From an uncultured Acidobacteriota bacterium (GTDB lineage Bacteria > Acidobacteriota > Vicinamibacteria > Vicinamibacterales > UBA2999): a stretch of 64,000 nt of DNA. The number at the start of each line of letters is the position of its first letter. Position 1 is the first letter of the stretch. The position numbers and the translations under genes are program-made. Positions 13,052-64,000 of this stretch are shown here, one piece after another. The stretch is from the NCBI GenBank assembly GCA_963784065.1, contig CAWAQA010000004.1, forward strand, positions 341,087 through 405,086, read 5' to 3'. Under the pieces are notes generated by a model, which was given only the letters and a program-made list of their open reading frames with translations, was not told the origin of the DNA and did not search any database.

Positions 13052-13054
13052 CAA

Positions 13055-13217
13055 TCATTGTTGATTGATGATCTGTGATTGATGATTCTGTGTTGAACGC
13101 GGATTGTCGAATGTTGATTGATATGCGGCGGAGCACGCCATTGCCACTCTCAGACAATCAGCAATCGAGAATCGCCAATCAACAACCAATCATCAATCAT
13201 CAGTCGGCAATCAGGAA
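13055..13217 (+). repeat. inverted pair of heptanucleotide arrays: about 10 units of TGATTGA-type, a 30-nt GC-rich core, then about 9 units of TCAATCA-type ending at the dnaE ATG
   Basis: Left array 13055-13124: tcattgt tgattga tgatctg tgattga tgattct gtgttga acgcgga ttgtcga atgttga ttgatat. Right array 13155-13217: caatcag caatcga gaatcgc caatcaa caaccaa tcatcaa tcatcag tcggcaa tcaggaa. The right word is the reverse complement of the left word. Confidence 0.8.
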
Positions 13218-16789: not shown

Positions 16790-16797
16790 CCGGCTTC

Positions 16798-16909
16798 AAC
16801 TCCGATATGTTCCGGCGCCGACATCCAGCTTCCAGAGAGGTGGCGCCGGGACGGGAGTTGGAGCACGCATCAGATTGGAGTTGGGCGTTGAGTGTGACCT
16901 ACCCTGTCC
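16798..16909 (+). repeat. dnaE-accA spacer: imperfect hairpin (caactcc..ccggcgcc / ggcgccgg..ggagttg) plus heptad words running into the accA ATG
   Basis: ccggcgcc (16812-16819) pairs with ggcgccgg (16842-16849). caactcc (16798-16804) pairs with ggagttg (16854-16860). Cut every 7 nt back from ATG 16910, the sequence reads ggagttg gagcacg catcaga ttggagt tgggcgt tgagtgt gacctac cctgtcc. Confidence 0.55.
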
Positions 16910-19599: not shown

Positions 19600-19663
19600 A
19601 GCAGCGACCCGCACCTCCGGTCGATGGTCCTCGATTGAGGTTCTTCAACCGAATGCACCTGTC

Positions 19664-19770
19664 GCAGGGGCCGGCTTCAGCACGGAACAGAGCTCTCGTA
19701 GGGGCCGGCTTCAGCCGGCCCTTGGCGCAACCGATCGAGACGCAGGTCGGGCGCTAAAGCCGGCCCTCCG
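19664..19770. repeat. cluster of three REP-like hairpin units (GGGCCGGC-TTCA-GCCGGCCC type)
   Basis: 19698-19721 is gtag gggccggc ttca gccggccc, a perfect 8-bp stem with a GTAG head. 19664-19685 is a degenerate forward copy (gcag gggccggc ttca gcacgg). 19747-19770 is a degenerate inverted copy (reverse complement ggagggccggc ttta gcgcccg). Confidence 0.7.
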
Positions 19771-20105
19771 ATCGATTGACTGCGGGAGACAGTAGACTGG
19801 AGGCAGGATCGGGGGGAGAACAGATGAGCGCACAGAAGGACCTGGAGGGCCTGGGCAGTTACGAGGCTTCGTGCAGGTTCCGCGAGATCGCCGAAGCGCT
19901 CGATCGTGCCCGACGCCACGATCGCACGGGAGGCGGAGGCGAAGGACACGTCTCGGGATTCGTTGCAGCGTGAGCGCACGCGAGAAGCCGGCGACGCCGA
20001 CCCGGGCGATTCGTAATTCGCGATGGTGATCGCCGGATTCAGGCCTCTAAATCGCGCTTCGCGAACCGCAGATCACGATCCTCCCTGTTATCCTGTAACT
20101 CACCG

Positions 20106-22433
20106 ATGAGATGGCAGAAAAGGGCTCGCTTCGGCGTGGCGGTCTTCGGGATCGCGTGCGCGATTGCCGTATACGCGGCCATCGGCGAGCGTGCGGCCGG
20201 GACACCCCCGGCCGCGCCTGCGCGCATCGATCCGAAGGCCATCATCGAGAGCGAGGGCGCACAGCTCCAGCAGGAACGCGGCGCCGAGCGTGACTTCGAC
20301 ATCAAGTCCGACCGCCAGCTCGCCTACGAGGACGGCTCCACCAAGCTCATCGGAGTCGAGATCCACGTCCGCGGCCGCCGCGGGCGTGATTTCGTCCTCA
20401 CCGGACGTGAAGCGCAGGCTGGCCAGAACCAGGACGACCTGCAGCTCGCCGGCGCCGTCAAGCTCGCGGCGAGCGACGGCTTCGTGCTCACCGCCGAAAG
20501 TGCGTCCTTCAGCCGCGGCGACGGCATCGTGCGCGCTCCGGGACCGATCGCGTTCGAGAAGGGACGGATGTCCGGCTCTGGCGTCGGGATGTCCTACGAC
20601 CAGGAGAACGACGTCGTGTCGCTGCTCGAGCAGGCGCGGGTGAAGACGGCAAACGAGAACGGCACCACCCAGATGGAGTTCACAGCCGGCTCCGCGGTGT
20701 TGAATCGTCTCCAGGACTACCTGACGCTCGAGGGCAGCGTGCACGCCCTGCGCGGGGAACAGGTGTTCGACGCTGACCGCGGCACGGCGCGTCTGACAAC
20801 GGGCGAAGACGCCGTCACCTTCATCGAGCTCCGCGGCAACGCCCGCGTGGCCGGGGGAAGCGGGACGCTCGATGCGATGAGTGCCCGCGACATCGATCTC
20901 GACTACACCGACGACGGCCAGACGCTCGAGCGCGTGCTGCTGACCGGCAGTGCGGCGCTGGCGATGACCGGGCAGAACGGCGGCAGCGGCCGCCAGATGA
21001 TCGGCGAGACGCTCGACGTCGTGCTCGCCCCCGACGGTGCGGTGACGAAAGCCACGGGCCGCGAGAAGGTGCAGCTCGACATGCCGGCCTCCGATGGCGT
21101 CGCCGCTCGAACGGTCAAGTCGAGGTTGCTCGATGCCGACGGCGAGCCGGGCAAGGGCCTGACGGCGGCACGCTTCACCGACAACGTGGAGTATCGGGAG
21201 GAAGCGCGTCAGGGGGCGGCGCCGCGCGCGGCGCGCTCGAACGCGCTGCAGGTGACCTTCGAGGACGATGCGATCGACAGCGCCGTGTTCACCGGCAGCG
21301 TGCGATTCGCCGAGGAGGGGCTGCAGGCGTCCGGCGCCGAGGCTCGCTACGACCCGAACGAGGGTCGCCTGCGTATCACCGGCATCGATGCGGGGGGGCC
21401 GCCGCGCGTCGCGGATGAGCAGATCACGATCGAGGCGCAGAAGAGCATCGACGTGACGCTCGAGGATCGCGGCATGAGCGCCGTCGGCGTCGTGAAGACA
21501 TCGCTGCGCTCAGGTGGCCGCACACTTGCGGGACGCGGCCGCGGCGCCGGCTCGGCCCGCGCGTCGCGCCTCCCGGGCCTGCTCAAGAACGAGGAGCCCG
21601 CCAACGTCTGGGCCGACGCCCTCCAGTACGAAGGTGGCGCCGGCAAGGCGGTCTACAGCGGCGACGCGAGGCTCTGGCAGGGCGAAACGGCCATCCGGGC
21701 AGACGTCATCACCATCGACCAGAACAACGGCGACCTCGCCGCGGTCGGCTCGGCGCGCTCGACCCTCGTGTTCGATAACGGCATCTCGCAGGGCCGCGCC
21801 GCTGAAATCCGCTACGACGACGCGAAGCGCGTCATCGGTTATTCGAACCCCATCCTGTCCTCGCTGCCGGCAGCGGCTGGCGGACGAGGAGCCGCACCGG
21901 CAAGCCCGTCTCCCGCAGCGCCGGCAATTCCGCCCACCGGTGCACCGGCTCTCCCGCCGACCGCGTTACCGGCAAGCCCGCCCACCGTTGCACCGGCAAG
22001 CCCGCCCACCGTTGCACCGGCAGGCCCGTCCACCGTTGCACCGGCAGGCCCGCCCGGCGTCGCACCGGTTGTCCCGCTCGTCACCTCGGCCCTGTTGAGT
22101 GGACCGCAGGGCGATCTGCGCGCGAATCGGATCGAGGTGATCCTCGCGCGGAACGGCAGCCGCGTGGAGCGGCTCGAGGCGTACACCGATGTCAGCGCCC
22201 GCGTCGATACGCGGCTCGCCACCGGCGGGCGCCTCACGTACTACGCCGAGGACGAGCGTTACGTGCTGGTCGGCGCGTCGCCGGTGCCGGTGAAGGTCGT
22301 GGACATCTGCCGCTCGACGAGCGGCAAGACGGTGACGTTCTTCAAGACGGCCGATCGGATCATCGTCGACGGCAACGAGGAGATTCGCACGCAGACGAAG
22401 AGCGGCGGACCGTGCTCCGCGCCCGCGCGCTGA
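20106..22433 (+). CDS. large LptC/LptA-like (OstA-family) periplasmic LPS-transport protein with an N-terminal membrane anchor and a Pro-rich repeat insert
   Basis: Intact 775-aa ORF immediately upstream of lptB. TM anchor [19 protein letters not shown]. It carries several LptA-like beta-jellyroll segments ([46 protein letters not shown]; [26 protein letters not shown]; [19 protein letters not shown]). The call rests on pattern and synteny, not on a search. Confidence 0.6.
21893..22078 (+). repeat. 24-nt (8-codon) tandem repeat, about 7.5 degenerate units, encoding PPTVAPAS-type Pro-rich linker
   Basis: Best units are caccgttgcaccggcaagcccgcc (21983-22006), caccgttgcaccggcaggcccgtc (22007-22030) and caccgttgcaccggcaggcccgcc (22031-22054). 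Flanking units are progressively more degenerate. Confidence 0.8.
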
Positions 22434-23172
22434 ATGTCCACCCACACGTCGACGCTCTGCACCCAGGCGCTCACGAAGTCGTACAGCGGACGCACCGTCT
22501 GTACGGGGCGTGAGCCTGGACGTGGCATCCGGGGAGGTGGTCGGCCTGCTCGGGCCGAATGGCGCGGGCAAGACCACGACGTTCTACATGACGGTCGGGC
22601 TCACGGTGCCCGATTCGGGACGCGTGATCCTCGACGGCGAGGATGTCACCGATGACCCGATGTATGTGCGCGCGCGAAAGGGTATCGGCTACCTGCCGCA
22701 GGAGCCGTCGATCTTCCGTGGCCTCTCCGTGGAACAGAACATCATGGCCATCCTCGAGACCCTCGATCTCGACGCCGCCGGACGGCGCGAGCGGCTGCGC
22801 GAGCTGCTCGCCGAGCTGAACCTGACGCCTCTCGCCAAGGCACCGGCTTACACACTCTCGGGTGGCGAACGCCGGCGCGCCGAGATCACGCGCGCGCTCG
22901 TCATCTCGCCGCGGTTCATCCTGCTCGACGAGCCGTTCGCGGGCATCGATCCGATCGCCGTGACGGATATCCAGAAGATCATCTTCCACCTGAAGGAGCG
23001 CGGGATCGGCGTGCTGATCACCGATCACAACGTCCGCGAGACGCTCCGCATCACGGACCGGGCATACATCGTGCACGACGGCGTAATCTTTCGGAGCGGC
23101 ACGCCCGATTCACTCGCCGCTGACGAAGAAGTGCGCCGGATTTATTTGGGAGCCGACTTCCGGCTGGACTAA
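22434..23172 (+). pseudogene. lptB: LPS export ABC transporter ATP-binding protein LptB. The frame is broken by one extra base at 22500.
   Basis: The N-terminus ...[10 protein letters not shown] lies in the frame of ORF 22434. It continues [30 protein letters not shown] in the frame of ORF 22510. Deleting t22500 joins them. Signature [15 protein letters not shown] and Walker [13 protein letters not shown] are present. Confidence 0.9.
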
Positions 23173-23199
23173 GATGACCTCTGGTAGACGACGCTAGAC

Positions 23200-24621
23200 A
23201 TGGCGATTTCGCAGAAACTGCACACAAAGCTCGTCCAGAAGCTGATTCTGACGCCGTCGCTTCAGCAGGCGATCAAGCTCCTTCCGATGTCCACGCTCGA
23301 GCTCTCCGAACTTCTCAACCAGGAGATGGTCGAGAACCCGATGCTCGAGGAAGTTCCCACGGAAGAGCTTCAGCCGGTCGAAGCGGCGCAGGAAAAACAG
23401 GAAGAGAAGAAACCCGAGAACAAGGACACCTGGGACGATCAGGATTACGAGTACTTCTTCGGCGACTATCTCGACGACGGCTACCGCCCGCGCACGCCGA
23501 CCGAGGTCAAGGAGCTGCCGCCGATCGAGAACACGCTCTCGAGTACCGCCTCGCTCTCGGACCACCTCCTCTGGCAGCTCTCGATGCAGACCGACGATGC
23601 GGCCATGCGCGAAATCGGCGAGGCGATCATCGGCAACCTCGATGACGACGGTTATCTCGTCGCCACGGTCGACGAGCTCGCGGGCATGGGCCCGTGGCCG
23701 ACCGAAGTGGTCGAGCGCGCGCTCAAGCTGGTTCAGGGCTTCGACCCGATCGGCGTCGCCAGCCGCGACCTGCAGGAATGCCTGCTGCTCCAATTACGTC
23801 ATCTCGGCATGTCCGGTACGCCGTCCGAGCGGATCGTCACGGAGCACATGCGGCTCCTGCAGAACCACCAGGTGCCCGAGCTCGCGCGCAAGCTCGGGAT
23901 GTCGATCGACGATCTCAAACAGCACATCGAGCTGATCCGCCACCTCGATCCGAAACCCGGCAGCCGGCTGAACCCGTCGCAGTCCCAGTACGTGATCCCC
24001 GACGTCTACATCGTGAAGGTCGAGGATCAGTACGTGGCCGTGCTCAACGAGGAAGGCCTGCCGCAGCTCAGGATCAGTCCGGTGTACCGGCGCCTGCTCG
24101 ACAAGAGCGCGGTGGAGAACACGGACGAGACACGCGCCTACGTGAAGGACAAGTTCCGCTCGGCGCTGTGGCTGATCAAGTCGGTGGAGCAGCGGCAGAA
24201 GACGATTCACAAGGTCGCCAGCAGCATCATCAACTTCCAGCGCGACTTCCTCGACCACGGCATCGAGTATCTGCGTCCGCTCGTCCTGCGCGACGTCGCC
24301 AACGACATCGGGATGCACGAGTCCACGGTGAGCCGCGTCGTCACCAACAAGTACATGCACACGCCGCAAGGCGTGTTCGAGATGAAGTACTTCTTCCACA
24401 GCGGCATTGCCAGCTCGTACGGCGAGGCGGTCTCGTCCGTGACGATCAAGCAGCGCATCCGGAAGATCATCGAACAGGAGGATCCGCGCAAGCCGCTGAG
24501 CGACTCGAAGATCGTCAGCATCCTCCAGCGCGAGGGCCTCGAGCTGGCGCGGCGCACGATCGCCAAGTACCGGGAGGAACTGAAGATCCCCACCTCCAAC
24601 CAGCGCAAAGTCCTCTATTAG
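23200..24621 (+). CDS. rpoN: RNA polymerase sigma-54 factor
   Basis: Intact 473-aa ORF. The N-terminus MAISQKLHTKLVQKLILTPSLQQAIKLL is region I. HTH region RDVANDIGMHESTVSRV. RpoN box ARRTIAKYREELKIP. Confidence 0.95.
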   Translation: MAISQKLHTKLVQKLILTPSLQQAIKLLPMSTLELSELLNQEMVENPMLEEVPTEELQPVEAAQEKQEEKKPENKDTWDDQDYEYFFGDYLDDGYRPRTPTEVKELPPIENTLSSTASLSDHLLWQLSMQTDDAAMREIGEAIIGNLDDDGYLVATVDELAGMGPWPTEVVERALKLVQGFDPIGVASRDLQECLLLQLRHLGMSGTPSERIVTEHMRLLQNHQVPELARKLGMSIDDLKQHIELIRHLDPKPGSRLNPSQSQYVIPDVYIVKVEDQYVAVLNEEGLPQLRISPVYRRLLDKSAVENTDETRAYVKDKFRSALWLIKSVEQRQKTIHKVASSIINFQRDFLDHGIEYLRPLVLRDVANDIGMHESTVSRVVTNKYMHTPQGVFEMKYFFHSGIASSYGEAVSSVTIKQRIRKIIEQEDPRKPLSDSKIVSILQREGLELARRTIAKYREELKIPTSNQRKVLY

Positions 24622-30437: not shown

Positions 30438-30878
30438 TTAGAACGGAATATCGTCGTCGGTGATCGGCTCCATCGGCGGCTCGTCCATCCCGCCGCCTGT
30501 GCACCTGCGAGCTGCCGCCGGCTCGACGCCGCGGCCGCCCCCGCCACCACCGCCGCCGAGCAGCGTGATGCGGTCGGCCTTGATCTCCGTCGTGTAGCGC
30601 TTGTTGCCGTCCTTGTCGTCCCACTGGCGGGTCTGCAGACGCCCTTCGACGTAGATCTGCTTGCCCTTCGTCAGGTACTCCTGCAGGCTTTCGGCCTGCT
30701 TGCCCCAGAGCACCACGCGGTGCCATTCGGTCTTTTCCTGGCGCTGCTGCTGCTTGTCGTTCCACACCTCGGTGGTCGCGAGGTTGAGGGTGGCCACGGC
30801 GGCGCCGCCGGGCGTGTAGCGAAGCTCCGCGTCGCGCCCGAGGTTGCCGACCAGAATGACCTTGTTCACACTGCCCAT
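30438..30878 (-). CDS. ssb: single-stranded DNA-binding protein
   Basis: Intact 146-aa [53 protein letters not shown] Gly-rich tail and the acidic tip DDDIPF. Confidence 0.95.
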
Positions 30879-30890
30879 CGAGATCCTTTC

Positions 30891-30989
30891 GGCGGACCTT
30901 CAGGTCCCCCTCTACGCATTCGCCCGCAGGCGGACTGGCGGTCCACCTCTACGCATCCGCTTCAGGCGGACCTGTGAGTCCGCCGCTAC
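30891..30989 (-). repeat. three tandem REP-like hairpin units (GTAG-head, GGCGGACC stem) between ssb and cpoB
   Basis: Plus strand: ggcggacc ttca ggtccccc tctac (30891-30915); ggcggac tggcg gtccacc tctac (30929-30952); ggcggacc tgtga gtccgcc gctac (30965-30989). Read on the minus strand, each starts GTAG(A/C). The linker ctctacgcat(t/c)cgc is also repeated. Confidence 0.75.
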
Positions 30990-31036
30990 CTGTTCACATG
31001 GACACTACCGTGGTGGTGTGACAGACGAGGTCACGA

Positions 31037-31932
31037 CTACGGCGTCGGCGGGCGCTGCTGGCGCGCGAGGCGGTCGAGGCCCTGCTTGGCGAGCCGGGCG
31101 CCGTCGCTCTCCGGGAAGGTCTTGACCACGGTTTCCCACGACGCGCGTGCCGCATCGATCTGCCCCATTCGCTCCTGCGCGATGCCGCGCTTGTAGTACG
31201 TCTCGGGGACGATGCTCGACATCGGGTAGTTCTGAATCACCGCATTGTATGCGGCAACGGCGTCTTCGAAGCGGCTTCTGTGACGCGTACGACTCGCCGA
31301 TCAGGTGTTGCGCCTCGCCGGCCGACTCCGATCGCGGAAAGGCCTTGAGGAACGCGTCGAACCCGTTGATCGCCAGCGAATACTGCCCGGCGAAGTAGTC
31401 GCCGCGCGCGGTTTCGAACATCCGCGTCGGCGAGAGCCCGAGGGTCGAGGGCAGCGGGGCCGGGACGGGCGGCGGCACCGCCGCCGGCGCGTTCGGATCG
31501 ATCGGCGCGTTGGGATCGACGACGGGCGGCAGGCGCCAGCGTTGTCTGCTGTTGCTGCTGCATGGCGAGCATCGAGCTGCGCAGCGCCTCGAGCTCCTCA
31601 CGCAGCGTCGCGATCCGCAGGTTGGTGTCGTCGGTCCGCTCGCGGATCACGCGCACGTCGTTCGCCATGTTGTCGATGATCAGCTTCTGATCGGCGAAGC
31701 CCTTGCGGTTGGCGTTGTTCGTGTCGTCGATGCGCGTGTTGATCGCCTTGACCGCCTGGTCGAGGTTTCGCTGAGCGCGGCCACCGCGATCGCGAGCTGC
31801 TGCGTCTGCTCCTGCAGCATGCGCACCTCGGCGGCCAGCTGCTGGTGCTCGCGGTTCTGCGCCGCGGCCGGCGACGCCACGGCGCGTCCAACCGGCAGCG
31901 CCACCGCGCCGCATCGAACAAAGCTTCTTCAT
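31037..31932 (-). pseudogene. cpoB: Tol-Pal system protein CpoB/YbgF. About four frame breaks.
   Basis: The sequence is assembled from four ORF fragments. MKKL... lies in ORF 31237..31932. ALPVGRAVASPAAAQNREHQQLAAEVRMLQEQTQQLAIAV lies in ORF 31680..31904. NLDQAVKAINTRIDDTNNANRKGFADQKLIIDNMANDVRVIRERTDDTNLRIATLREELEALR is back in ORF 31237..31932. TRMFETARGDYFAGQYSLAINGFDAFLKAFPRSESAGEAQHLIGESY lies in ORF 31005..31601. FEDAVAAYNAVIQNYPMSSIVPETYYKRGIAQERMGQIDAARASWETVVKTFPES lies in ORF 31037..31240. The coiled-coil plus TPR architecture and the position after pal support the call. Confidence 0.75.
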
Positions 31933-31942
31933 AGTCAGAGCC

Positions 31943-32533
31943 TCATTTCGACGTGATCACGAAGTGCGCGCGCCGGTTCTTCGCCCACGCGTCCTCATTG
32001 TGACCCGGATCGAAGGGGAACTCCTTCCCGTAGCTCACCGTGCGGATGCGGTCGGGCGGGATGCCGAGCGACACGAGGTAGGTCTTCACCGCCACCGCCC
32101 GGCGCTCGCCGAGCGCCAGGTTGTATTCGGCGGTGCCGCGCTCGTCGCAGTGGCCCTCGAGGGTGACGACCCACGTCGGGTACTTCTTCAGCAGCTCCGC
32201 GTTCGACTGCGCGATCGCCGCGGCCGGCGTCGTCGAGGTCCGCGCTGTCGAGCGCGAAGAACACCGGCCGGAACGGGGAGTCGCGGTTGAGATCGTCGAG
32301 CGAGCGATTGGCGATCGGAGTCCTCGCGCCAGCGGCTGCGGCGGCACCGGCAACGACTCTTCCACGCGCTGCGGCGGGGGCGGGGGCGGGGCGGTCGTCA
32401 CGGCCGGCGGCGTGGCGACCGGCGGCGGCGGCGGCGCCGCGACGGCGGCTGCCGGCGCGAGCACGACGCGGCGAGCGACGCCGATCAGGATGAGGAGCAC
32501 TCCGACTGCACTGAACCTGCGCATCTCTTGCAT
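31943..32533 (-). pseudogene. pal: peptidoglycan-associated lipoprotein Pal (OmpA family). Two frame breaks.
   Basis: The N-terminus and Pro-rich linker, and the C-terminus [56 protein letters not shown], lie in ORF 31943..32533. The middle part [28 protein letters not shown] is found only in the frame of ORF 31995..33716. Confidence 0.85.
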
Positions 32534-32569
32534 CGGTCCTCGTCGGACGATTCAGACAGGTACATGCTA

Positions 32570-33928
32570 CTAGTTCGACCACGCCGGCGTCTGGTTGTTG
32601 CCGTCCCGCGTGACCTGCTTCACGCCGCGCCCGTCGCGGCCGATCGTGAAAATCTGGATGCGGCCCGCGCGCGTGGACGTGAACGCGATGTGCCGGCCGT
32701 TCGGCGAATAGGCCGGGCTCTCGTTCGAGCCTTCGCCGAATGTGATCTGTCGCGTCATGCCCGTCGCCAGGTCGTAGACCTTGATGTCGTAGCCGGGCCC
32801 GGTACGCGCCGCATAGGCGATCTCGTTGAACGGCGCCGGCGACCAGGTCGGCCGGTCCGCGTACGACTCGGTCGTCGTGATCCGCCGGAGGTTCAGGCCG
32901 TCGGCGCCGGCGACGTAGATCTGCGGCGTGCCGGCGCGGTCGGACGTGAACGCGATCTGCGTGCCGGTCGGCGACCAGGTCGGCGTCACGTCGATCGCCG
33001 GATGGTTGGTGAGGCGCCGCACGGCCGAGCCGTCGCGGTTCATCACGTAGATCTCGGGGTTGCCGTCGCGATTCGACATGAAGGCGATCCGCGTCCCGTC
33101 CGGCGAGAACACCGGCAGGAAGTTCTGCGTCCCGCGCGGCGTCGGCTCCTCCTGCACGCCCTGGTAGATCTGCGCCATGAAGATGTCCGGATAGCCGCGG
33201 CGGTACGACGTGTAGGCCATCGTCCGCGCGTCCGGCGACCACGACGGCGTGATGTTCAGCTGCCGGTTGGTCGTGATGCGCCGCTGGTTGGCGCCGTCGT
33301 AGTCGGAGATGTAGATCTCCTTCACGTCGCGGTTCTCGATCGGTCCGGCCACGCGCTCGCGGTTGCGATCCGAGGCGAACGCCAGCTTCGTGCGCGCCAC
33401 GCCGCGCAGCGCGCGCTGCTGCTGGTGGATCTCGTCGGCGATGGTGTGCGCGTAGAGGCGCGGATTGGTGATCGTCCCGGTGTATTCCTTGGCGAACACC
33501 GACTGGCGCGTGCGCACGTTGAACAGCCGCACCTGCGACGCGTGACGTTGTTCGCCGATGCGCTGCACGCGTGCCGAAGACCACGGCGTCGGCGCCGAGC
33601 TCGCGCCACGCGCTGAACGGCACGTCCTCGGGCGTGCGCGCCGGCGGCACGGTGGCGTAGGTGTCGCGCGGGATCAGGTAGAACTCGCGCTCGAACTCCA
33701 GGTCGTCCCACAGCACCTGGCCATTGTCTTGGCGACCTCGGCGGCGTCGGGCGTGAGCGCCACGAAGTCGGGCACCGCATAACGCGGCGGCGTGCCGGGA
33801 TCGCCGCTGATCACCAGCTCGATCTCCGAGGCTGCTGGCTGCTGCGGCGGCGGCCTGCGCCGACGAGCACGAGCGCGACGGCCGCGACGAACGGCAAGAA
33901 CACGGCGGCAGAGAATCGGTCTTTTCAT
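32570..33928 (-). pseudogene. tolB: Tol-Pal system beta-propeller protein TolB. At least two to four frame breaks.
   Basis: ATG 33928 (MKRPIL...) overlaps the upstream stop as TGATG. EIELVISGDPGTPPRYAVPDFVALTPDAAEVAKT lies in frame 1. VLWDDLEFEREFYLIPRDTY...DAVVFGT lies in ORF 31995..33716. The propeller lies in ORF 32570..33568 (repeated SPDG/SPNG blades: WSPDARTMAY, FSPDGTRIAF, WSPTGTQIAF, YSPNGRHIAF). The signal peptide is unreadable in any single frame. Confidence 0.9.
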
Positions 33929-55266: not shown

Positions 55267-55328
55267 TGGGCAGTGGGCACGACCCACGCGAGGCGCTGCC
55301 AACTGCTGACTGCGGAGTGCCGACTACT
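55266..55328. repeat. convergent-gene spacer made of 9 heptad words (GTGGGCA-type then NACTGCN-type)
   Basis: Reads gtgggca gtgggca cgaccca cgcgagg cgctgcc aactgct gactgcg gagtgcc gactact. The spacer lies exactly between the two stop codons (55264-55266 and 55328-55330). Confidence 0.7.
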
Positions 55329-56278
55329 TACGGGACCGTGAACGGGGAACCGCCGCGGCCGCGGCCGCCTGGCAATTGGAGCGGTGATGCGCCGCTGCCC
55401 TGCGGCAATCCGCGTCCGCCGCCACCCAGGCCAGGCGTCGGCAGACCTCTCCCTCGTCCTTCCATGCCTGGCAACTGCGTGCCCCGTCCGCCCGGCGTCG
55501 CCGTGCCGGGGACGCCGCCGCCCGCCTGCTGGTTGGCTTCGGTCGCGACGAACGCCCACTCGTTGTATTTGTTGCGGCCGTTGAAGAGGCGCAGTGAGGT
55601 CTGCTCGCTCTTGCTGACGACACCCAGGACAGGTCCCGTTGTCCCCCCGGTACCTGGGCGCGTCACGCGATTGAAGCCAGACGCGGCCGGGCCCGTTCCG
55701 CCGCCGGCGCCCAATCCGAGGGTCGCGCCCGTGCCACGCCCACCGGTCGGATCCGTGCCCTGGCCGGTGCCAAGTCCCGTCCCGCGGCCTGCGCCGGCCC
55801 CCAATCCCCCGCCGCTCCCCAATCCCCCGCCGCTCCCCAATCCTCCGCCGCCCCCCAATCCTGCTCCTGCCCCTAACCCCGCGCCGCCCCCTAACCCTGC
55901 TCCTGCTCCGCGGCCGGGGACCACCGGCGCAGTCATCTGGCCTGGCACTGGCGTGCCGACCGAGATGATCTGGAACTCGCCGTCCGCCGTCATCGGGTCC
56001 TTGTACTTTTTCCGGAGGAACTTCTCGTTGACGAGGACGTCAACGCTCGGCGGGAACGCGCCGCGACTGCGCTGGTAGAGCGCGACGGCGCGCGAGTACT
56101 GCAGTCCGCGGAATACGAGCTCTTCTTCGCGCTCGCGCCGGGCGAGCGTCCCCCACGCGGGCAGCAGCATGCTGAGCGCGATGGACATCACGCTCAGCAT
56201 GATGAGCAGCGCAGCCATCGCGAAGCCGCGCTCGCTACTAGAGAACGATCGTCGTGGTGCCGGTTCCCGTGCGCCCAT
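55328..56278 (-). CDS. Gly-rich pseudopilin-like protein with a hydrophobic N-terminal helix (last gene of the pilus/T2SS-like operon)
   Basis: Intact 316-aa ORF. ...SSERGFAMAALLIMLSVMSIALSMLLPAW resembles a prepilin leader plus helix, but has Ala where the conserved Glu5 would be. Then LVFRGLQYSRAVALYQ and FLRKKYKDPMT, and long GLGxGG and GGRG tracts. The start at 56278 overlaps the upstream gene by 41 nt. Confidence 0.55.
   Translation of the reverse strand: MGAREPAPRRSFSSSERGFAMAALLIMLSVMSIALSMLLPAWGTLARREREEELVFRGLQYSRAVALYQRSRGAFPPSVDVLVNEKFLRKKYKDPMTADGEFQIISVGTPVPGQMTAPVVPGRGAGAGLGGGAGLGAGAGLGGGGGLGSGGGLGSGGGLGAGAGRGTGLGTGQGTDPTGGRGTGATLGLGAGGGTGPAASGFNRVTRPGTGGTTGPVLGVVSKSEQTSLRLFNGRNKYNEWAFVATEANQQAGGGVPGTATPGGRGTQLPGMEGRGRGLPTPGLGGGGRGLPQGSGASPLQLPGGRGRGGSPFTVP
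55799..55906 (-). repeat. 18-nt tandem repeat, 6 units, encoding (G-A/G-G-L-G-x) hexapeptides
   Basis: Plus-strand units: ccccaatcccccgccgct (twice), ccccaatcctccgccgcc, ccccaatcctgctcctgc, ccctaaccccgcgccgcc, ccctaaccctgctcctgc. Confidence 0.85.
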
Positions 56279-57552
56279 CCCGCAGTATCACTCTCACCGA
56301 GACAGTCTTTGAGCCGGTGCTCGAATAGGTGAAGGTCGCCGAGTTCGTGCTGGTGACCACGTTCGGGCTAGTGCCCTCGAACGTCCACTCATAACTGATC
56401 ACATCGCCGGACGCGGCGCCGCTGACCGATGCCGTCGCGGTGACGGTGAGTCCCGAACCGTTCGCCGTGACGGCGACTCCGACCACGCCGCGAACCTGGA
56501 CAAGCTGATCCGCCGTCGTCGTCTCGCCGTTGATGTCTGTTGCGACGAGGCGCGCCGAGAAGGTTCCCGTTGTGCCATACGCGTGCGTCACCGTGGCGGC
56601 GCTGGACAGGTTCCCGAGGTTGATGGTTTCGCCGTCACCGAAGTCGAGGCGCGCCGACGTCAGATTGCTGCCCGTGGCGACCCGGGTTGCCGTGAACGTC
56701 ACCAGTTGGCCGATACCAACATTGGAGCAGGCGGCGGTTCCCACGGCACACGTCAGCGTTACCGACGGGCCTGTACCGCACGGTGACCGTGAATGTGCCC
56801 GTAATCGCACCGACACGCGCCGTCACCTCGCTCTGGGCGGTCGTCGCCAGCGTCGTCCGCGCCTCACCAATGTCGCTCGTAATGGCGGTCGTGGCGCCGA
56901 GTGTGCCCTGGGTTGCGCTGAACACAACGGGAATGCCGGGCAACGCCCGGCCGCCTTCGCCGATCACCGTGGCCAACAGTTCCACGGTCCCCCCGGTAGA
57001 CGGCACGCTTGCCGGCGTGGCGCGGAGCGCGACGACGCCCGTCGTGCCGATCGCGGCCGTGCCGACGGCGATCGTGACGACATTCGTTCCCGTCGCAGGA
57101 GCGGGCGTGCCGTTCGGCGGAGGCGTCGTCGTGCCGCCAGCTCCGGTGGTACCCGATGTGGCGCGGATTTCCGCGGTCCCGGATGTGGTTCCGGTGAACA
57201 TCGTGACGGCCACGCCGTTCCGGGTCTGGGTCTCGACCGGGTTGACGGTACCGAGGTTCGTCGAGAAGCGAACCGTCGTACCGTTCTGCACCGGCGTGCC
57301 GCTCGACTCGGCGACAAATGCCTGGATCTCCGTCGAACCGCCGATGGGCAGGACGCTGATCGGCGCGCTCACCGAAATCGTGGAGCTTGTCGGGGCAAGC
57401 AACGGCACCGAGTCGCACGCGCCGGCCGCGATCGCCGAAGACACGACTGCGACGAGCACTGCGGCACGCCGCTTCCATGCGCCGGCCCGGCGAACACCGT
57501 CGGTCATGACCATCGAGGTACCTGCGATCACCACACTACCCTTGAGTTTCAT
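56238..57552 (-). pseudogene. surface lipoprotein with bacterial Ig-like (Big) and PKD-like domains. One frame break near 56790.
   Basis: The lipobox ...VAVVSSAIAAGAC and Ig-like repeats (TEIQAFVAESSGTPVQNGTTVRFSTNLGTV; TVELLATVIGEGGRALPGIPVVFSATQGTLG) lie in ORF 56635..57552. ...GTFTVTV continues as TGPSVTLTC..., followed by PKD-like repeats (FDFGDGE-type LDFGDGETINLG...THAYGTTGTF; YEWTFEG...TFTYSSTGSKTVSVRV) in ORF 56238..56816. Confidence 0.7.
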
Positions 57553-57555
57553 CTC

Positions 57556-57960
57556 TTACCAATCCGCGTATCGCGATCCGTCAATCGCCGTGTCCTCCGC
57601 ACCGCTCTTCACGTCGAAGATCCCCGACTCGGCAAGCGCATTCCCAGGCTGGGGATCCGACATCGTCGTCTGCCAGGTTTCGGCGGAGTTGGTAATCGGG
57701 TCAACAGGGACCGCACGGAGGTACTTCTCCGACACCAGCGACTCGAGCGATGGCGGGTACTTGTTCTTGTCGGCGTAGTACTGGTCGATCGCGTCGCGCA
57801 TCCGGAAGAGATCGGATTTCAGCACCGCCTCTTTCGATCGCTGGATGCTGTTGACGTACAGCGCCGTGGCGATGCCGGCGAGGATGACGATGATGGCCAT
57901 CACGATCATCAACTCGATGAGCGTGAACCCATCGGCTCGCGTTCGGCGCATCCTGACCAT
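57556..57960 (-). CDS. GspG-like type II secretion pseudopilin / type IV pilin-like protein
   Basis: Prepilin N-terminus RADGFTLIELMIVMAIIVILAGIATALY. GspG-like body LFRMRDAIDQYYADKNKYPPSLESLVSEKYLRAVPVDPIT. ATG 57960 overlaps the upstream stop as TGATG; the ORF opens at 58083. Confidence 0.8.
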   Translation of the reverse strand: MVRMRRTRADGFTLIELMIVMAIIVILAGIATALYVNSIQRSKEAVLKSDLFRMRDAIDQYYADKNKYPPSLESLVSEKYLRAVPVDPITNSAETWQTTMSDPQPGNALAESGIFDVKSGAEDTAIDGSRYADW

Positions 57961-58460
57961 CACCATTCGTTGTACTTGGTTCCGTCGAGAGCCGTACCCG
58001 TGTTCGTCGTGTAGATGTCGAACACGTTCTGTCCTCCCCAGGACGACGAGTCGGGCCGATCCTGATAGGACCGCATGCCCCACTCCATGCTGTTGGTCAT
58101 CGGGTCGAGCGGCACGCGCCGCAGGTACTTCAGCTTCCGCCCTGACGCGTCGCCGGCGGCACTGACGCCCTCCACGAGCGTCTCGAGGTCCGGCGGATAC
58201 CCCTCGCTGCCGGGCTCGAGCTCGGTCTGCGGAATCTGGCCGGCGTCCACGGCATCCTTGAACTTGTCGATCGCGTTCCGCACCTCGCGCAGCGTCCGGC
58301 GCAGCTCCGCTTCGCGCTGGCGCTGCGATGTCACCTGGGCCAGCGGCATCACCGCCGACGCGAGGATCATCAGGATGGCGGTGACGATCACGAGCTCGAC
58401 GAAGGTGTAGCCGCGTTCGCCGCCGGGCAAGGTCCGCGCCGCAGCTATCAGGCGTCTCAT
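57960..58460 (-). CDS. GspG-like type II secretion pseudopilin / type IV pilin-like protein (second copy)
   Basis: Intact 166-aa ORF. GERGYTFVELVIVTAILMILASAVMPLA. LREVRNAIDKFKD. YPPDLETLVEG. YLRRVPLDPMT. Confidence 0.8.
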   Translation of the reverse strand: MRRLIAAARTLPGGERGYTFVELVIVTAILMILASAVMPLAQVTSQRQREAELRRTLREVRNAIDKFKDAVDAGQIPQTELEPGSEGYPPDLETLVEGVSAAGDASGRKLKYLRRVPLDPMTNSMEWGMRSYQDRPDSSSWGGQNVFDIYTTNTGTALDGTKYNEW

Positions 58461-60943
58461 CGGACCACGACCATCGGAACAGGCGCGAACACGAGCGGGA
58501 CCGGTGTGCCGCGCGGCCCGGTGCCGGCGCCGGTCAGCGTCAGATTGCCGGAGCCACCACCCACTGCGTCGAACAGGATGGCGGCCAGCAAGCCGGTCCC
58601 GGACACACCCGTGGCATCCCCCGCACGCACGATGGCGATGTCGATCCGTCCCGCTGCCGCGTCCACCTGCTGCGTGAATGTGGCGTTCACGCCGCCGGAG
58701 CGCATGAAGCTGCCCTCCTGGATGGCGCGCACGCGCAGCGCCGACGGATTGAACGTGATCGTCAGCGTCGCTCCGGACACCATCGATGCGCCGGTGATCG
58801 AGACGGGTACCGTGTATGGACCGCCGCCGACGCGGAAGTCGGTGCCCGGCGGCGAGAGGAAGATCTGGCCCCCTCCGGCCGCGGTCGCACCAACGTTCGA
58901 TGCGGGCGTCCCTGCGGCCTGGGGCGTCGAGCCTGGCGGTGTCAGCGCAGAACCTGGCTGCTCAGTGGGCGCCGGCACCGGCGGAACGGTTGGTGTCGGC
59001 GTACCCTGCCCAGGGGTGGCGGGAGCAGTCGTCGTGCCGGGAATGGGCGAGCTGCCCGGCGGAACCTGCGGGACGGGGCCACTTCCCGTGGGCAGCACAG
59101 GCTGACCGGCTACCGGCGCGGCGCGGTGCGCCAGCCGCAGGAGCCGGAGGAGAAGCCGGCGGAGGAGCGATGTCAGGCTGCGCGGCGATCAGCGGCGGCG
59201 GACCCCCGAGGCCCAGCGCCTGCTGTGTGCCGATAAAGATCGGGCTCACATCGGTCTGGGTCAGCTCGTGCGTCCGTACGATCCGCGGCGTGAGCAGCAT
59301 GATGATATCAGTCTGATCAACCTCCGTGATCTCCGTACCAAACAGCGAGCGCAGGATCGGGATGCGCATGAGACCCGGAAATCCCCGCATCGTTTTTCGC
59401 TCGTTGTCGTCCAGCAGTCCTGCCATCAGGTTGGACTCGCCGTCACGCAGCCGCAGCCGCGTGTTCACGCGTCGGGCGTTGAATGACGGTAACGCTTGAC
59501 CGCCGACCGTGGTGTTAGGACCGAGCGAACTGCTCTCGACCAGGACGTCGAGGATGATCTCGTTCTCGAACGTCACACGCGGTGTCATCTCGATGATCAC
59601 GCCCACGGTCCGGTAGTTGAACGAGGTCAGCGGGTTGAAGCTTGCCCCGCCCTGGGCCACCGGTGTGAAGACCGTCGAAGGGACCGGGACTTCCCGCCCG
59701 AGATTGAGCGTGATCTTCTGCCCTTCGGCGCCTCGAAGTTGCGGCTTGGCGATCTGCCTGGTGCCGATATCGGTCTCGAGGAAACGCAGAACGGCGGACG
59801 GCACCGCCATGTAGAAGTCGGCGGTCGAGACGCCGCGGGTGATGGTATTCAGGTTGAACGGCGTCGACGTCACACCCGCGGCGGTGGGGGGATCGGTGTC
59901 GTTGCCGGGCGTGGCGCCCGTGATCCCTCGCTGCTCGGGCGAGAACGCGAGGTTGACGGCGTACTCCGACAGGTTGATGCCGAATTCCTTGACCCTGCCC
60001 CGGTTCACCTCGAGGATCTGGACGTCGATGATGATTTCCGAGCGCGGATTGTCGTTCGCCTCGATCATCTTTTCGATGATCGACACGACGTTCGCGGTCC
60101 CGCGCACGGTGATCGTGTTCGCCGTCTTGTTCGCGGCCAGCACCGGCTGCACGGCGATCGCCGGGATGCGGATGACCTGGTTGAGCGTCTGCACCAGCTC
60201 CGTCGCGTCGGCGTGCGAGATGAAGAAGGTGCGGATCACCTGCTCCTCGTACGCCGCGCGCTTCTGCGCGTTGTCCGGGATGATCATGATGGTGCGCGGG
60301 TTGATCACCTTGTAGAACAGCGTGTTCGCGCCCAGGATCTGCGTCAGCGCTTCCTCGAACGTGACGCCGCGCAGGTTCACCGTGTACATCCGGTCCTGGA
60401 AGTCGCGCTCGTAGCTGATGTTGATCCCGGCCGCCATGCCGATGGAGTTGAGGATGTCGCGCAGGCTGGAATTGTTGAAGATGACGTCGATCGGCTCGCG
60501 CGACGCCGGGTTCAGCAGCGGCTGCGACTGTCTCGCGACGTCGCGCATCTGCTGGATCGACGGTTGCGGCCGCGAGGCTTCCACCAGGTCGCGGATGCGC
60601 CGCTCCATCTCCAGTACCTTCGCCGACACGAGGCGGTTCGACGGGTCGAACTCGCTGGCGCGGCGGTATTCGCGCAGCGCCTCCTCGAGCTGCCCGCGCG
60701 CCTCGAGGACACGCGCCTGATCCAGGTGCAGGTTGGCGGCATTGATCATCGCGCGCTCGAGCGCGATCTGGTAGTCGGCGCGTTCGGGGTCTTCCTGGAC
60801 GGCACGGCGATAGAAATCCACTGCCGTGTCCCAGTCACCCGCGCGCGCCGCGCTCTCGCCGCTGCCGAACGCGCGGCTCGCCGCGCACCCTGCCCCCAAG
60901 GCGGCATCACGATCACGATCACAATGGCTAGTCGATGCATCAT
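58457..60943 (-). pseudogene. secretin (GspD/PilQ family) with N-terminal TPR region and C-terminal cohesin-like domain. Two frame breaks (about 60895 and about 59100).
   Basis: The lipoprotein-like start MMHRLAIVIVIV lies in ORF 60746..60943. ORF 58962..60899 carries the rest of the N-terminus and the core. It has a TPR-like part (DWDTAVDFYRRAVQEDPERADYQIALE...) and N-domains (IDVIFNNSSLRDILNSIG; VIRTFFISHADATELVQTLNQV). Its secretin core is IIIDVQILEVNR, SFNYRTVGVIIEMTPRV, ESNLMAGLL and GFPGLMRIPILRSLFG. After a Pro-rich linker there is an about 150-aa domain (PYTVPVSITGASMVSGATLTITFNPSALRV...GRIDIAIVRAGDATGVSGTGLLAAILFDAVGGGSGNLTL) in ORF 58457..59098. Confidence 0.85.
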
Positions 60944-61520
60944 TGCCCTGAGAGCCGGATCACCTGCCGTCCGCGGCCGTCGGTGTAGGCCATCTCGACG
61001 TTGTCTGCGCCAATCCTCAACAGACGATATCGGCCTTCGATGATATCGCCTTCCCTTCCCGTCAAGACGGTCCCGCGGCCGTCACTCAGGATGGCGACGC
61101 GGCCCGCCTGAGCCGGAGCGTTCAGCAGGCCGATGAACCGCAGCGGGATCGGCGGCGGCGGCGGCGGCCCCTGCGGCACCGGCGGTCCCGTGGGGACGAC
61201 CCGCGGGGCGGGCGCGGCGCCGGCGCCGGGGCCCGGAGGCGCGGGGGGCGGCGCCTTCACCTCGAAGCGGAACAGGTTGCGCTCCGCCACGGGAGCGTCT
61301 TTCGCGGGCCGCGTTCAGCGCCTCGAGCTGGATGTCCGTCACCGGCGCCTGGCCGCCCCTTCCCGGCTGCTGCCGGGTTCCGGTCGTGCCGGATACTGGA
61401 TTGGACGGTGCGGCCGAGGTTCCGGCCGGGGTGTCGCCTCCCCGCAGCGTGATGACGAGAACCAGGCCGCACCACGAGCGCGCCGAGGACGGCGAGCTGC
61501 TTCTGCGTCTTCGACGCCAT
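60940..61520 (-). pseudogene. PilP-like / GspC-like pilus assembly protein. Two frame breaks.
   Basis: MASKTQKQLAVLGALVV is the membrane anchor in ORF 61257..61520. APVTDIQLEALNAA lies in ORF 61082..61342. ERNLFRFEVKAPPP...IPLRFIGLLNAPAQAGRVAILSDGRGTVLTGREGDIIEGRYRLLRIGADNVEM lies in ORF 60940..61290. Its position between pilO and the secretin supports the call. Confidence 0.5.
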
Positions 61521-62104
61521 CAGGCCGCGTCCCGGAAGTAGGTGGACATCTCCAGCGTCACCACTTGGGCGCCGGTGTTCTCCGCGCCCGCCGCGAGCTC
61601 GACGTTGTCGATGACCACGAACTCCGGGGACGCTTCGAGCTGGTGGATGAAGGTGCGCATGTCCTCGTAGGCGCCGCTCAGAACCATCCTGATTCTCAGA
61701 CGGCGGAGCGTGCTCTCGCGGATTTCGACTTCCTCGTACTGATCGCGATCGAACGTGAGGTCCGATTCGCGGGCGAGCTGCCGCAGCCGCAGCTGCGTCA
61801 GCCGCCGCGCCCCCGACAGGTCCGGCGGCAGCACGTCCTTGTAAAAGGTAGCGAGCTCGGTGGAGGCGCGGTCTTTACCGGTCAGCGTGCCATTGGCCTG
61901 CGCGAAATCCGCCTGCGCCGCCGTCAGTGCCTGCCCCGCAGCGTCGTTGCGTTGCTCGACGTTGGCGACGCGCTGCGCCAGCGGATACACGAACAACGCG
62001 TACACCAGCGCGTTCGCCACGAGAGCGACGACCAGCGGCACCACGACCCGCCGGTGCTCGGCGAGCACGCGCCGCCCCAGAGACGTGCCGTGAGGGCTGC
62101 TCAT
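61520..62104 (-). CDS. pilO: type IV pilus/T2SS inner-membrane assembly protein PilO-like
   Basis: Intact 194-aa ORF. One TM (VVVPLVVALVANALVYALFVY), a coiled-coil region, then the ferredoxin-like end LRIRMVLSGAYEDMRTFIHQLEASPEFVVIDNVEL. The gene is start/stop-coupled on both sides. Confidence 0.65.
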   Translation of the reverse strand: MSSPHGTSLGRRVLAEHRRVVVPLVVALVANALVYALFVYPLAQRVANVEQRNDAAGQALTAAQADFAQANGTLTGKDRASTELATFYKDVLPPDLSGARRLTQLRLRQLARESDLTFDRDQYEEVEIRESTLRRLRIRMVLSGAYEDMRTFIHQLEASPEFVVIDNVELAAGAENTGAQVVTLEMSTYFRDAA

Positions 62105-62685
62105 GGCTGGGGTGCCTCCTGCTGGGCTGTGCGCGACGGCGGCTGGTAGACGCCTTCGATGATCGCCTCGAGCAGCCCCTCCTCGTTGGTCTGCGTCTCG
62201 GTGGCGAGCACGTTGTGGAACGCGCCGGTCGTCTCGAGCGCGTCGATGAACGCCTCGAGGTCCTCGGCGCGCCGCGCGTCCACGGCGATGCCGATGATGA
62301 ACACGCCCTTCTCGAGGCGCGGCTGCACCGCCGTGATGCGGACGTCGTCCGGGAGCGTCGCCTCGAACTGCGTGAAGAGCTCCGTCCAGGAGAAGGAGCG
62401 CTGATCGATGAGGTCGTTCGCCTCGCGCGCCGCGCTCGCCACCGTCTCCAGCTCCGTCGGGTTGATCTGCGCGCGAATGCGTGACGCTTCCGACCGCAGC
62501 CGCGCCGCCTCGCGCTCGGCTTCATCCGCGTTGGCGCCCAGCGTCTGCTGACTGGTCATCAGCGTGAGGATCCTGATGCCGTTGAACAGCGTGATCCCGA
62601 TGACGACGGCGGCGAGCGTGGACAGCGCGACCTGGACGGCGCGGACGTTGTAGAACGGCTTCGTCGCGAGATTGGTCCGGATCAT
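62101..62685 (-). CDS. pilN: PilN-like (fimbrial assembly) protein
   Basis: MIRTNLATKPFYN is the typical PilN N-terminus. TM ALSTLAAVVIGITLFNGI. WTELFTQFEATLPDDVRITAVQP. ATG 62685 overlaps the pilM stop. Confidence 0.75.
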   Translation of the reverse strand: MIRTNLATKPFYNVRAVQVALSTLAAVVIGITLFNGIRILTLMTSQQTLGANADEAEREAARLRSEASRIRAQINPTELETVASAAREANDLIDQRSFSWTELFTQFEATLPDDVRITAVQPRLEKGVFIIGIAVDARRAEDLEAFIDALETTGAFHNVLATETQTNEEGLLEAIIEGVYQPPSRTAQQEAPQP

Positions 62686-63651
62686 CAGGCCGCCACCGCC
62701 TCCCGGCGCGTCCGCAGCAGCATGCCGACGAGCGGCGCGAGCAGATCCATCAGCTCCGGCGTGACGCCGATGCGGTCGCGCAGCGACGCGGCGCGCGTCG
62801 GATCGATCGGTTCCACGCGTCACGCCGAGGCGCTCCTCGAGGCTGCGCCGCGCCGCGTCGACGACGCCCGGCACACGGCCGGTGCCGCCGAGCAGCACGC
62901 GCGTGAACCCCTGTCCCGTCAAGCCGGTCCTGGTAGTACATCGCCGTCTGGTGCACGAGGTCGGCGAGGATGTCGTCGCCTCGCCCTGCGGCCGGCTGCG
63001 GAAGAAGATGACGTGCTCGCCGCGCATGATGGCGAGCGAGGTGTACTCGGGCTGCATGTGGACGACGAGCCAGTCGCCCGCGGGGGCGTCTGTCGAGGCC
63101 AGGAACAGGTTGATGACGCTGAGCGTCGCGAGGTCCACGAGCCCGGCATAGGCGCCGGCTTCGTCGCAGACGCCTTCGTACTCGCGCACGACGTCGCGGC
63201 GGGCCATGGCGACGACGAACTCGGCGCCGGCGGCGCCGCGCGCGCCCGGGCTATACGTCACGCACGCATCGTCGATCGGGAACGGCGCCGACTTCTTCAG
63301 CTGCCAGCGTACGAGCTGGTCGAGGTCCTCGCGGCGGGCGGGAACCTGGTCGAACCGCAACAACGAGACGCGGGCGGCGACGTCGGGGATGACCAGCGCG
63401 ACGCGGCGCGGCCGGCTGCCCAGGCGCTCGAACACCGCCTGCAGCGCCGCCACGACACGCGGCCGATCGGCGAGGTTGTGCGCGGTGAGCGACGGTACCA
63501 CCGCCCCGGCGGGGAGCGGCTCGCTCGCATAGCCCTGCACGACGAGGTCGCGCCCGCGCGCGCTCATCGTGGCCACGGCGACGCGCTCGGGCGAGATCTC
63601 GACCGCCGCGTCAGGAGGCGGACTGGCGAGCCAGGAGGCGAGCAGGCTCAT
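62685..63651 (-). pseudogene. pilM: PilM-like actin-fold pilus assembly ATPase. Three frame breaks.
   Basis: MSLLASWLASPPPDAAVEISPERVAVATM...VALVIPDVAARVSLLRFDQVPARREDLDQLVRWQLKK...LVDLATLSVINLF...YTSLAIMRGEHVIFFRSRP lies in the main frame. LVHQTAMYYQDRL lies in ORF 62750..62956. GFTRVLLGGTG is back in the main frame. The end VEPIDPTRAASLRDRIGVTPELMDLLAPLVGMLLR lies in a third frame (my own translation). Confidence 0.8.
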
Positions 63652-64000
63652 TCGACGAAGGTCACCTTGTTGATTTCGCGCAGGGTCGATCTGGCCCAGC
63701 AGCACCTTCTCGACCGCGGACTCGCGGAGGAACCGCATGCCTTCTTCGTGTGCCGCCTTCTTGATTTCGGACGCCGGGCGGCGATCGAGGATCATCTCAC
63801 GGATGCGATCGGAGAGATCCAGGAGCTCGCAGATGGCCGTGCGTCCCTTGAAGCCGGTGCCGCCGCATTCGATGCAGCCCGCGCCCTCGTAGAACGGTGT
63901 GCGACTGGGCCAGCGACGGCTCGAGCGCGGACTCCTCCAGCAGCTTCGGATCGACGCGGACCGCGCGCTTGCAGTGCGAGCAGATCAGGCGCACGAGCCG
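63648..64000 (-). pseudogene. GspE/PilB-family secretion ATPase, C-terminal end only (the gene continues beyond the right edge). Two frame breaks.
   Basis: VRLICSHCKRAVRVDPKLLEE lies in ORF 63797..63994. FYEGAGCIECGGTGFKGRTAICELLDLSDRIREMILDRRPASEIKKAAHEEGMRFLRESAVEKVLLGQ lies in the frame of ORF 62101..63795 and carries the tetracysteine Zn motif. The end STLREINKVTFVE-stop lies in a third frame, overlapping the pilM ATG as ATGA. Confidence 0.8.

Follow-up and report, generated by a model that had tools for sequence, protein, structure and literature searches.

A 64,000-nucleotide stretch of DNA from an uncultured Acidobacteriota bacterium of the Vicinamibacterales (GenBank assembly GCA_963784065.1, contig CAWAQA010000004.1, positions 341,087 to 405,086 of the forward strand; hereafter the window) contains, at positions 58457-60943, one gene for a lipoprotein secretin with a tethered C-terminal cohesin. 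The gene lies on the minus strand, and its ATG at 60943 and stop codon at 58457-58459 are the true ends of the ancestral secretin gene. The initial annotation of the locus, which was made from the sequence of the window, had both ends right; however, analysis of the open reading frames (ORFs) in the window divides the gene into three frame segments rather than the single ORF that had been assumed. Joined, these segments give a repaired protein of 828 residues, the reconstruction to which residue numbers below refer. From the N-terminus to the C-terminus, and all on the minus strand, the features are:

60908..60943, minus: start codon plus the hydrophobic stretch of the signal peptide (MMHRLAIVIVIV), frame A
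60906..60907, minus: N-terminal frame break, two leftover bases, equivalent to one base missing relative to orthologs; probable assembly indel
60885..60905, minus: lipobox AALGAGC, with the lipidated cysteine at residue 20 of the reconstruction, frame B
60627..60869, minus: tetratricopeptide repeat (TPR) module, about two repeats and flanking helices (Pfam TPR_2, 2.1e-9; also TPR_14 and TPR_11)
60486..60626, minus: helical connector joining the TPR module to N0 (H101-121 and H127-136 are its helices in the model of an ortholog)
60276..60485, minus: N0 (STN-like) domain (PF07660, which precomputed domain lists give for many orthologs)
60039..60233, minus: Secretin_N domain (PF03958, 4.2e-7, 30.5 bits vs a cut-off of 28.2)
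59274..60032, minus: secretin core, β-barrel and gate (PF00263 envelope 59274-59780)
59175..59273, minus: conserved segment following the secretin core (THELTQTDVSPIFIGTQQALGLGGPPPLIAAQP), 33 residues located where an S-domain would be, with the highest conservation in the protein
58877..59174, minus: disordered linker rich in Pro, Ala, Thr and Gly, about 99 residues, containing the C-terminal frame break
58460..58876, minus: cohesin module (PF00963), 139 residues; the stop codon (58457-58459) comes next

Domain organization of the secretin

A TPR N-terminus followed by secretin domains had been proposed in the initial annotation, and this is borne out by the window copy: TPR_2, Secretin_N and Secretin are each matched above the Pfam gathering score (2e-9, 4e-7 and 1e-32, respectively), the Secretin match (PF00263) reaching 113.5 bits against a cut-off of 27.5; these matches and that to Cohesin are well outside what chance would give. 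The minus strand contains all four of the peptide strings that were quoted there, at residues 37, 87, 712 and 767 of the reconstruction. A phmmer match to GspD (5zdh_A) covers query residues 266-592, beyond the end of the Pfam Secretin match. The periplasmic N-domains that characterize the secretin superfamily (N0/STN and Secretin_N) are present, with STN in the window copy scoring under the Pfam threshold (19.2 vs 28.4 bits) and FecR_C likewise below threshold. At the N-terminus, the signal peptide and lipobox are intact in 49/49 orthologs (ortholog sequences begin M(M)QRLxLVIVIASLxAGC), while in the window a one-base gap separates the signal peptide from the body of the protein.

An AlphaFold2 model of a full-length intact ortholog (P0001) consists of a helical TPR region (pLDDT 92-96), N0, a single Secretin_N domain, the barrel, a linker at residues 566-696 that is disordered (pLDDT 33-42) and a confidently predicted cohesin. 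The model matches secretins of every class, including PilQ, GspD, InvG, PulD and BfpB (E down to 1.2e-18), and, separately, it matches cohesins; among the matches listed, none of the secretin chains covers the cohesin part. There is no confident inter-domain contact in the full-length model (pTM 0.37).

The C-terminal cohesin module

The initial annotation had also described a cohesin-like β-sandwich at the C-terminus, and whether the domain has a cohesin or related fold was the point on which it was to stand or fall. Pfam and the modelled structure both give a cohesin. The match of the window copy to the Pfam Cohesin family (PF00963) scores 27.7-29.1 bits (E 1.3e-6 to 3.4e-6), where the gathering score is 24.1, and 62/63 aligned family copies match at E <= 0.01, the best value being 1.4e-9. 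With a sequence profile of the domain, the best solved relative is the Archaeoglobus cohesin 2XDH (E 0.0097). The AlphaFold2 model of the 139-residue module has a pLDDT of 95.1 and a pTM of 0.88, and in a Foldseek search of the PDB all 50 of the 50 matches listed are cohesins (query TM-score, TMq, 0.60-0.84). The best structural match among those listed is again 2XDH (E 2.6e-10, TM 0.74/0.75, 23% identity). The model thus confirms that the C-terminal domain has a cohesin fold. The more specific assignment to type I is not supported, because the best match is to the non-cellulosomal archaeal 2XDH and because type II modules have TM-scores equal to or higher than those of type I (TMq 0.76-0.84 vs 0.67-0.75 among the matches listed).

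The module is joined to the secretin by a linker that in the window is composed of 29% Pro, 19% Ala, 13% Thr and 12% Gly. Its length is about 99 residues, not 60 as first estimated, and the domain that follows has 139 residues rather than about 150. In the family as a whole, linkers are 62-130 residues long (31% Pro, 22% Ala, 12% Gly and 10% Thr), with 36% identity.

Distribution and conservation

Species-representative genomes contain at least 543 related stretches, and 83-84 related loci were compared below. The best 80 come from metagenome-assembled genomes (MAGs) of Vicinamibacterales or Acidobacteriota, a few of them with implausible bin labels. Six loci (L021, L061, L083, L084, L074 and L068) are labelled as Bifidobacteriaceae/Bifidobacterium, Cyanobacteriota or Acidimicrobiia and have a Vicinamibacterales-type locus with 51-69% identity; these bins are probably mislabelled or contaminated.

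The repaired protein has more than 100 relatives encoded by single ORFs (786-864 aa, 60-85% identity, 96-100% coverage), and Pfam Cohesin appears in the precomputed domain lists of many full-length relatives. Secretin and cohesin are in one frame at 75/83 loci. The eight exceptions are four long-read contigs (L002, L003, L050 and L065), two contig ends (L020 and L052), a short-read MAG with a break close to the end of the gene (L018), and L031. The last was considered as a cohesin without a secretin, and was rejected because a complete ORF of 788 aa is present.

Conservation was assessed by aligning 49 full-length proteins, some of them representatives with only 41-53% identity, and identity is expressed as the mean vs the reference. 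The lipobox cysteine, following a hydrophobic signal sequence, is invariant (49/49), and every one of the 49 proteins has both the TPR module and the cohesin. Mean identity is 70% for the TPR module, 66% for the helical connector between it and N0, 73% for the N0 and Secretin_N domains, 66% for the secretin core, 79% for the 33 residues after the barrel, 36% for the linker and 73% for the cohesin. Because the cohesin is conserved to the same degree as the N-domains and is present in essentially every locus examined, it is under purifying selection and hence does something.

An exhaustive profile search with the cohesin returned 83 clusters at E <= 1e-30. All ten of the mid-length representatives that were scanned are truncated secretins or read-throughs of the secretin gene, and two further representatives likewise combine Secretin and Cohesin. 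The non-secretin exceptions among the scanned representatives are multi-cohesin surface proteins with tails for the type IX secretion system (T9SS), whose scores are summed over repeats. By these profile matches, the cohesin subfamily is essentially specific to these secretins.

Several other proteins found in this search deserve comment. The best-scoring non-secretin relatives of the cohesin (P0241, P0256 and P0305) have three to five tandem cohesins, CarboxypepD_reg and a T9SS C-terminal sorting domain, and are scaffoldin-like surface proteins of T9SS users. They were considered as possible scaffoldins of the same system and rejected, given their T9SS sorting tails and the origin of their scores in summed repeats. 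P0354 (459 aa) has a secretin-type cohesin at residues 141-268 and then a prepilin N-terminal methylation motif at 302-327, and looks like a read-through from the end of a secretin into a downstream pseudopilin gene in another assembly.

Frame breaks in the window

In the window, the lipobox and the whole secretin body are in frame B (60905-59124), which past 59124 enters Arg-rich junk and terminates at 58962, while the remainder of the linker and the C-terminal domain (59122-58460) return to frame A. The N-terminal break is at 60906-60907, and tblastn of an intact ortholog against the window accordingly matches frame -3 only from residue 12 onward. The C-terminal break corresponds to one extra base within approximately 59105-59128, inside the linker, which we modelled at 59123. 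Third-position GC changes phase where the frames switch, and it stays coding-like across all three segments.

These breaks are not peculiar to the secretin gene. The syntenic locus L001 lies on a 1.28-Mb contig; its genes are in the same order and its secretin (856 aa) is intact. When the proteins of L001 are compared with the window by tblastn, at least seven genes within 49-64 kb of the window have frame breaks. The frame changes are:

~63885: GspE-type ATPase
~62800: PilM
~61305: PilP/GspC-like gene
~60906 and ~59123, minus: secretin (two)
~56770: Big/PKD gene
~53455: GHL10 gene
~49860: integrase

The window resembles an unpolished long-read assembly, and the listed ORF at 62101..63795 (564 aa) is a chimera that reads through the end of the ATPase, PilM and PilN. 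Elsewhere in the family, Flye-style long contigs also split the secretin-cohesin gene, into products of 650 and 134 aa in L003 and into four pieces in L002. The SPAdes short-read contig L004 has the same cohesin sequence as L003 and is uninterrupted through the linker, and P0049, which is out of frame on a 228-kb contig, falls into one 90% cluster with an intact protein of 822 aa. Because at least seven genes of the window are broken, and because splits elsewhere are absent from short-read or clustered copies, we consider that, by these comparisons, both breaks in the secretin gene are very probably single-base assembly indels. Apparently stand-alone cohesin genes on long contigs (P0219 and P0237) were rejected as such, being pieces of frameshifted secretins.

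The alternative is that the breaks are real, and that the gene is a pseudogene in this organism, or else is expressed as a 645-aa secretin lacking a signal peptide alongside a separate cohesin protein of 213 aa. The breaks are, after all, present in the window sequence as it stands, and the public annotation lists the shortened product of 645 aa (P0013), junk tail included. Yet such a product would have no signal peptide and would finish in off-frame Arg-rich junk, the broken genes are crowded into the same 15 kb, the splits on other long contigs are gone in short-read assemblies or 90%-cluster members, and all three segments have coding-like third-position GC. A pseudogene, a split gene or a programmed frameshift is unlikely on these grounds, and we regard real breaks of any of the kinds proposed as highly improbable.

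The gene neighbourhood

The secretin gene lies within a conserved cluster that resembles those of T2SS and type IV pili. In the window, the neighbouring genes of the cluster are:

60940..64000, minus: upstream genes for the end of a GspE/PilB-type ATPase, PilM, a PilN-like, a PilO/GspM-like and a PilP/GspC-like protein (identified with tblastn, Pfam and NCBIfam)
55328..58460, minus: downstream genes of the cluster, conserved in 67-81 loci, as follows
57960-58460 and 57556-57957, minus: two GspG-like pseudopilins, downstream of the secretin
56271-57552, minus: Big_1/PKD lipoprotein with a signal peptide and the lipobox AAGAC, with a frame break of its own
55328-56278, minus: protein of 316 aa whose hydrophobic N-terminal helix is pseudopilin-like, with a long low-complexity stretch rich in Gly (GLGGGAGLGAGAGLGGGGG...)

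The upstream genes are conserved in 71-80 loci, and several of them have their own frame breaks in the window. A GspF-type platform protein also belongs to the cluster, as seen in the layout of L001. Among loci that extend far enough, gene order is kept in 60-81. The genes encoded with the secretin are those expected for a member of the secretin superfamily, namely type IV filament assembly genes (GspF, GspE, PilM/N/O, PilP/GspC-like and pseudopilins) in conserved order. From its genes alone, the cluster is a type IV filament-family system with a composition like that of a type II secretion system (T2SS), and its role may be in secretion or in forming a fibre. The Big_1/PKD protein may be a surface lipoprotein or a cargo of the system. 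Searches of Pfam and NCBIfam with the Gly-rich protein (316 aa in the window copy, about 318 aa in the cluster) gave no match, and the protein is conserved in 67 loci.

Beyond the end of the window at 64000, L001 has a bacterial microcompartment (BMC) shell protein and an aldehyde dehydrogenase directly upstream of the GspF-type gene (1057-3172 of L001), and these two are kept at the GspF-adjacent position in 58 loci. In other parts of the window (11486-24618 and 30441-33673), ORFs resembling guaA, dnaE, accA, rpoN, ssb and tolB/pal, as recognized from sequence alone, suggest ordinary chromosome.

Comparison with known systems

The protein shares with the secretins of T2SS and type IV pili (GspD/PulD and PilQ) the N0 (STN-like) and Secretin_N domains and the secretin barrel. 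Like theirs, its gene is accompanied by GspE/F-type, PilM/N/O-type and pseudopilin genes, and the model of the ortholog matches PilQ, GspD, PulD and InvG. It differs from them in having a single Secretin_N domain, in scoring below the NCBIfam cut-offs for GspD and PilQ, and in the addition of an N-terminal lipobox and TPR module and a disordered tail of about 100 residues that ends in a cohesin.

One secretin known to need no pilotin is HxcQ of Pseudomonas aeruginosa, according to Viarre et al. 2009 as cited in PMC12475490. The resemblance between this liposecretin and the proteins described here is that the secretin itself is a lipoprotein, with the lipobox cysteine found here in 49/49. To our knowledge, both the TPR module and the C-terminal cohesin are lacking in HxcQ. 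A lipid-anchored TPR module tied to a secretin is, on the other hand, familiar from the TPR lipoprotein pilotins (PilF/PilW/Tgl for PilQ and TadD for RcpA), and the structure of TadD bound to RcpA (8ODN) is among the listed structural matches of the ortholog model. The difference is that the TPR module is here the N-terminus of the secretin polypeptide and not a separate protein. Its sequence is similar only to those of generic or consensus TPR proteins.

At the other end of the polypeptide, the module shares its β-sandwich fold, and its occurrence outside any cellulosome, with the non-cellulosomal cohesins of Archaeoglobus fulgidus (2XDH) and Clostridium perfringens (2JH2 and 2VO8). In contrast to these, it is fused to a Gram-negative outer-membrane channel, is probably periplasmic, and has no dockerin that we could find nearby. 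The S-domain of secretins in T2SS and the type III secretion system is also a C-terminal extension following the barrel, and binds the pilotin (PMC6532946), but it is a short helix-turn-helix lying on the barrel, whereas the extension here is a folded β-sandwich of 139 residues on a long flexible tether.

In the full-text literature searched, from which the main review of non-cellulosomal cohesins falls outside coverage, neither a fusion of secretin and cohesin nor this system in Vicinamibacteria is described. As far as could be found, then, the architecture is visible in databases through automatic domain labels and yet uncharacterised in the literature searched.

Possible functions of the cohesin

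On balance, and with some caution, we lean towards a self-piloting lipoprotein secretin, guided by its lipid anchor and TPR module, in which the tethered cohesins form a docking ring in the periplasm. The N-terminal lipid anchor and fused TPR module would replace a separate TPR lipoprotein pilotin. In solved secretins, only the rim of the β-lip enters the outer membrane and the remainder is periplasmic, as is the C-terminal S-domain, the binding site of lipoprotein pilotins (PMC6532946). Because the polypeptide that follows the barrel in solved secretins lies in the periplasm, the cohesins are probably located there too, and not on the cell surface. They would hang, one per subunit, on tethers reaching the base of the channel or the peptidoglycan, and might serve as docking points for a recruited partner other than a canonical dockerin encoded nearby.

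Several considerations weigh against this proposal. The periplasmic placement is by analogy with solved secretins, none of which carries such an extension, and the number of subunits (12-15 per channel, as in solved secretins) is assumed. The initial annotation had suggested that the genome be searched for dockerin-like modules; a regular-expression search for the dockerin-type calcium loop found none when the window and 84 loci (1.49 Mb, +/-10 kb around the gene) were translated in all six frames, and no conserved protein of the cluster has a Dockerin Pfam match at E <= 1. As no dockerin was found, docking is inferred from the fold alone. The secretin also misses the NCBIfam equivalog cut-offs for both GspD (TIGR02517, 145.5 vs 351.35 bits) and PilQ (TIGR02515, 125.3 vs 284.35), so the machine that it serves may be one for secretion or a pilus. 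Finally, the probable status of the indels as errors comes from comparison of assemblies.

There are other scenarios for the cohesin. We think it rather unlikely, though worth serious consideration, that the domain has no external partner and acts within the secretin complex itself, either by binding the fused TPR module or a neighbouring subunit, with a part in piloting or multimerisation, or by tying the channel to peptidoglycan or another envelope layer. Such an internal role would fit with the finding of no dockerin in the cluster, with the near restriction of the cohesin subfamily to these secretins, and with the joint presence of the cohesin and the TPR module, a type of module that forms protein-binding surfaces, in 49/49. 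Parallels for envelope anchoring are provided by the AMIN domains for PilQ and by GspB for OutD, and wall-anchoring accessory contacts of secretins are an established theme (PMC9239104). However, the full-length model, with its pTM of 0.37 and disordered linker, has no confident placement of the cohesin on the other domains, and a variable tether of 62-130 residues exceeds what an intramolecular clasp would need. We also know of no cohesins that bind peptidoglycan. A position on the cell surface, where the cohesin would dock extracellular dockerin-bearing enzymes or adhesins at the pore in the manner of a minimal scaffoldin, is in our opinion improbable; it is the more adventurous reading of the suggestion in the initial annotation that, depending on topology, the cohesin could dock proteins at the pore. 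In its favour, the module folds like the cohesins of cellulosomes, surface proteins with several cohesins and T9SS sorting tails are its nearest relatives outside the secretins, and the Big/PKD lipoprotein of the cluster could be surface-exposed; but solved secretins keep the post-barrel polypeptide in the periplasm with only the β-lip rim in the membrane (PMC6532946), the sequence offers no evident route by which a folded domain of 139 residues would cross the outer membrane, and the dockerin motif is absent from the window and from the 1.49 Mb of related loci.

Returning to the periplasmic docking ring, it is conceivable, but in our estimation quite unlikely, that the tethered cohesin arms capture proteins bearing a divergent cohesin-binding tag and pass them to the vestibule of the secretin. 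There would be a dozen or more such flexible arms to each channel, and the captured proteins could be the Big/PKD lipoprotein of the cluster or unlinked exoproteins. The signal for type II secretion has long resisted definition, and if capture by the cohesin arms is true, it would amount to modular substrate selection of the cohesin-dockerin style in a type II-like secretion system.

Implications

One practical consequence concerns metagenomic data. In long-read metagenome assemblies, the GC-rich linker is often hit by indels, and the split gene then appears as a "secretin" and, separately, an orphan "cohesin domain protein". Vicinamibacterales are abundant in soils, and the architecture is conserved across the order, with the cohesin in essentially every locus examined. 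Secretins belong to the most thoroughly studied machines of the outer membrane, and none of the solved ones matched by the model has a folded module tethered at a distance from its C-terminus. The lipobox and TPR module fused to the secretin constitute a natural experiment in the fusion of a pilotin with its secretin. If the cohesin recruits a partner, it would give a way in, defined by sequence, to the question of how proteins are selected or positioned by a type II-like system, and would extend the biology of cohesins from Gram-positive surfaces to the Gram-negative periplasm.

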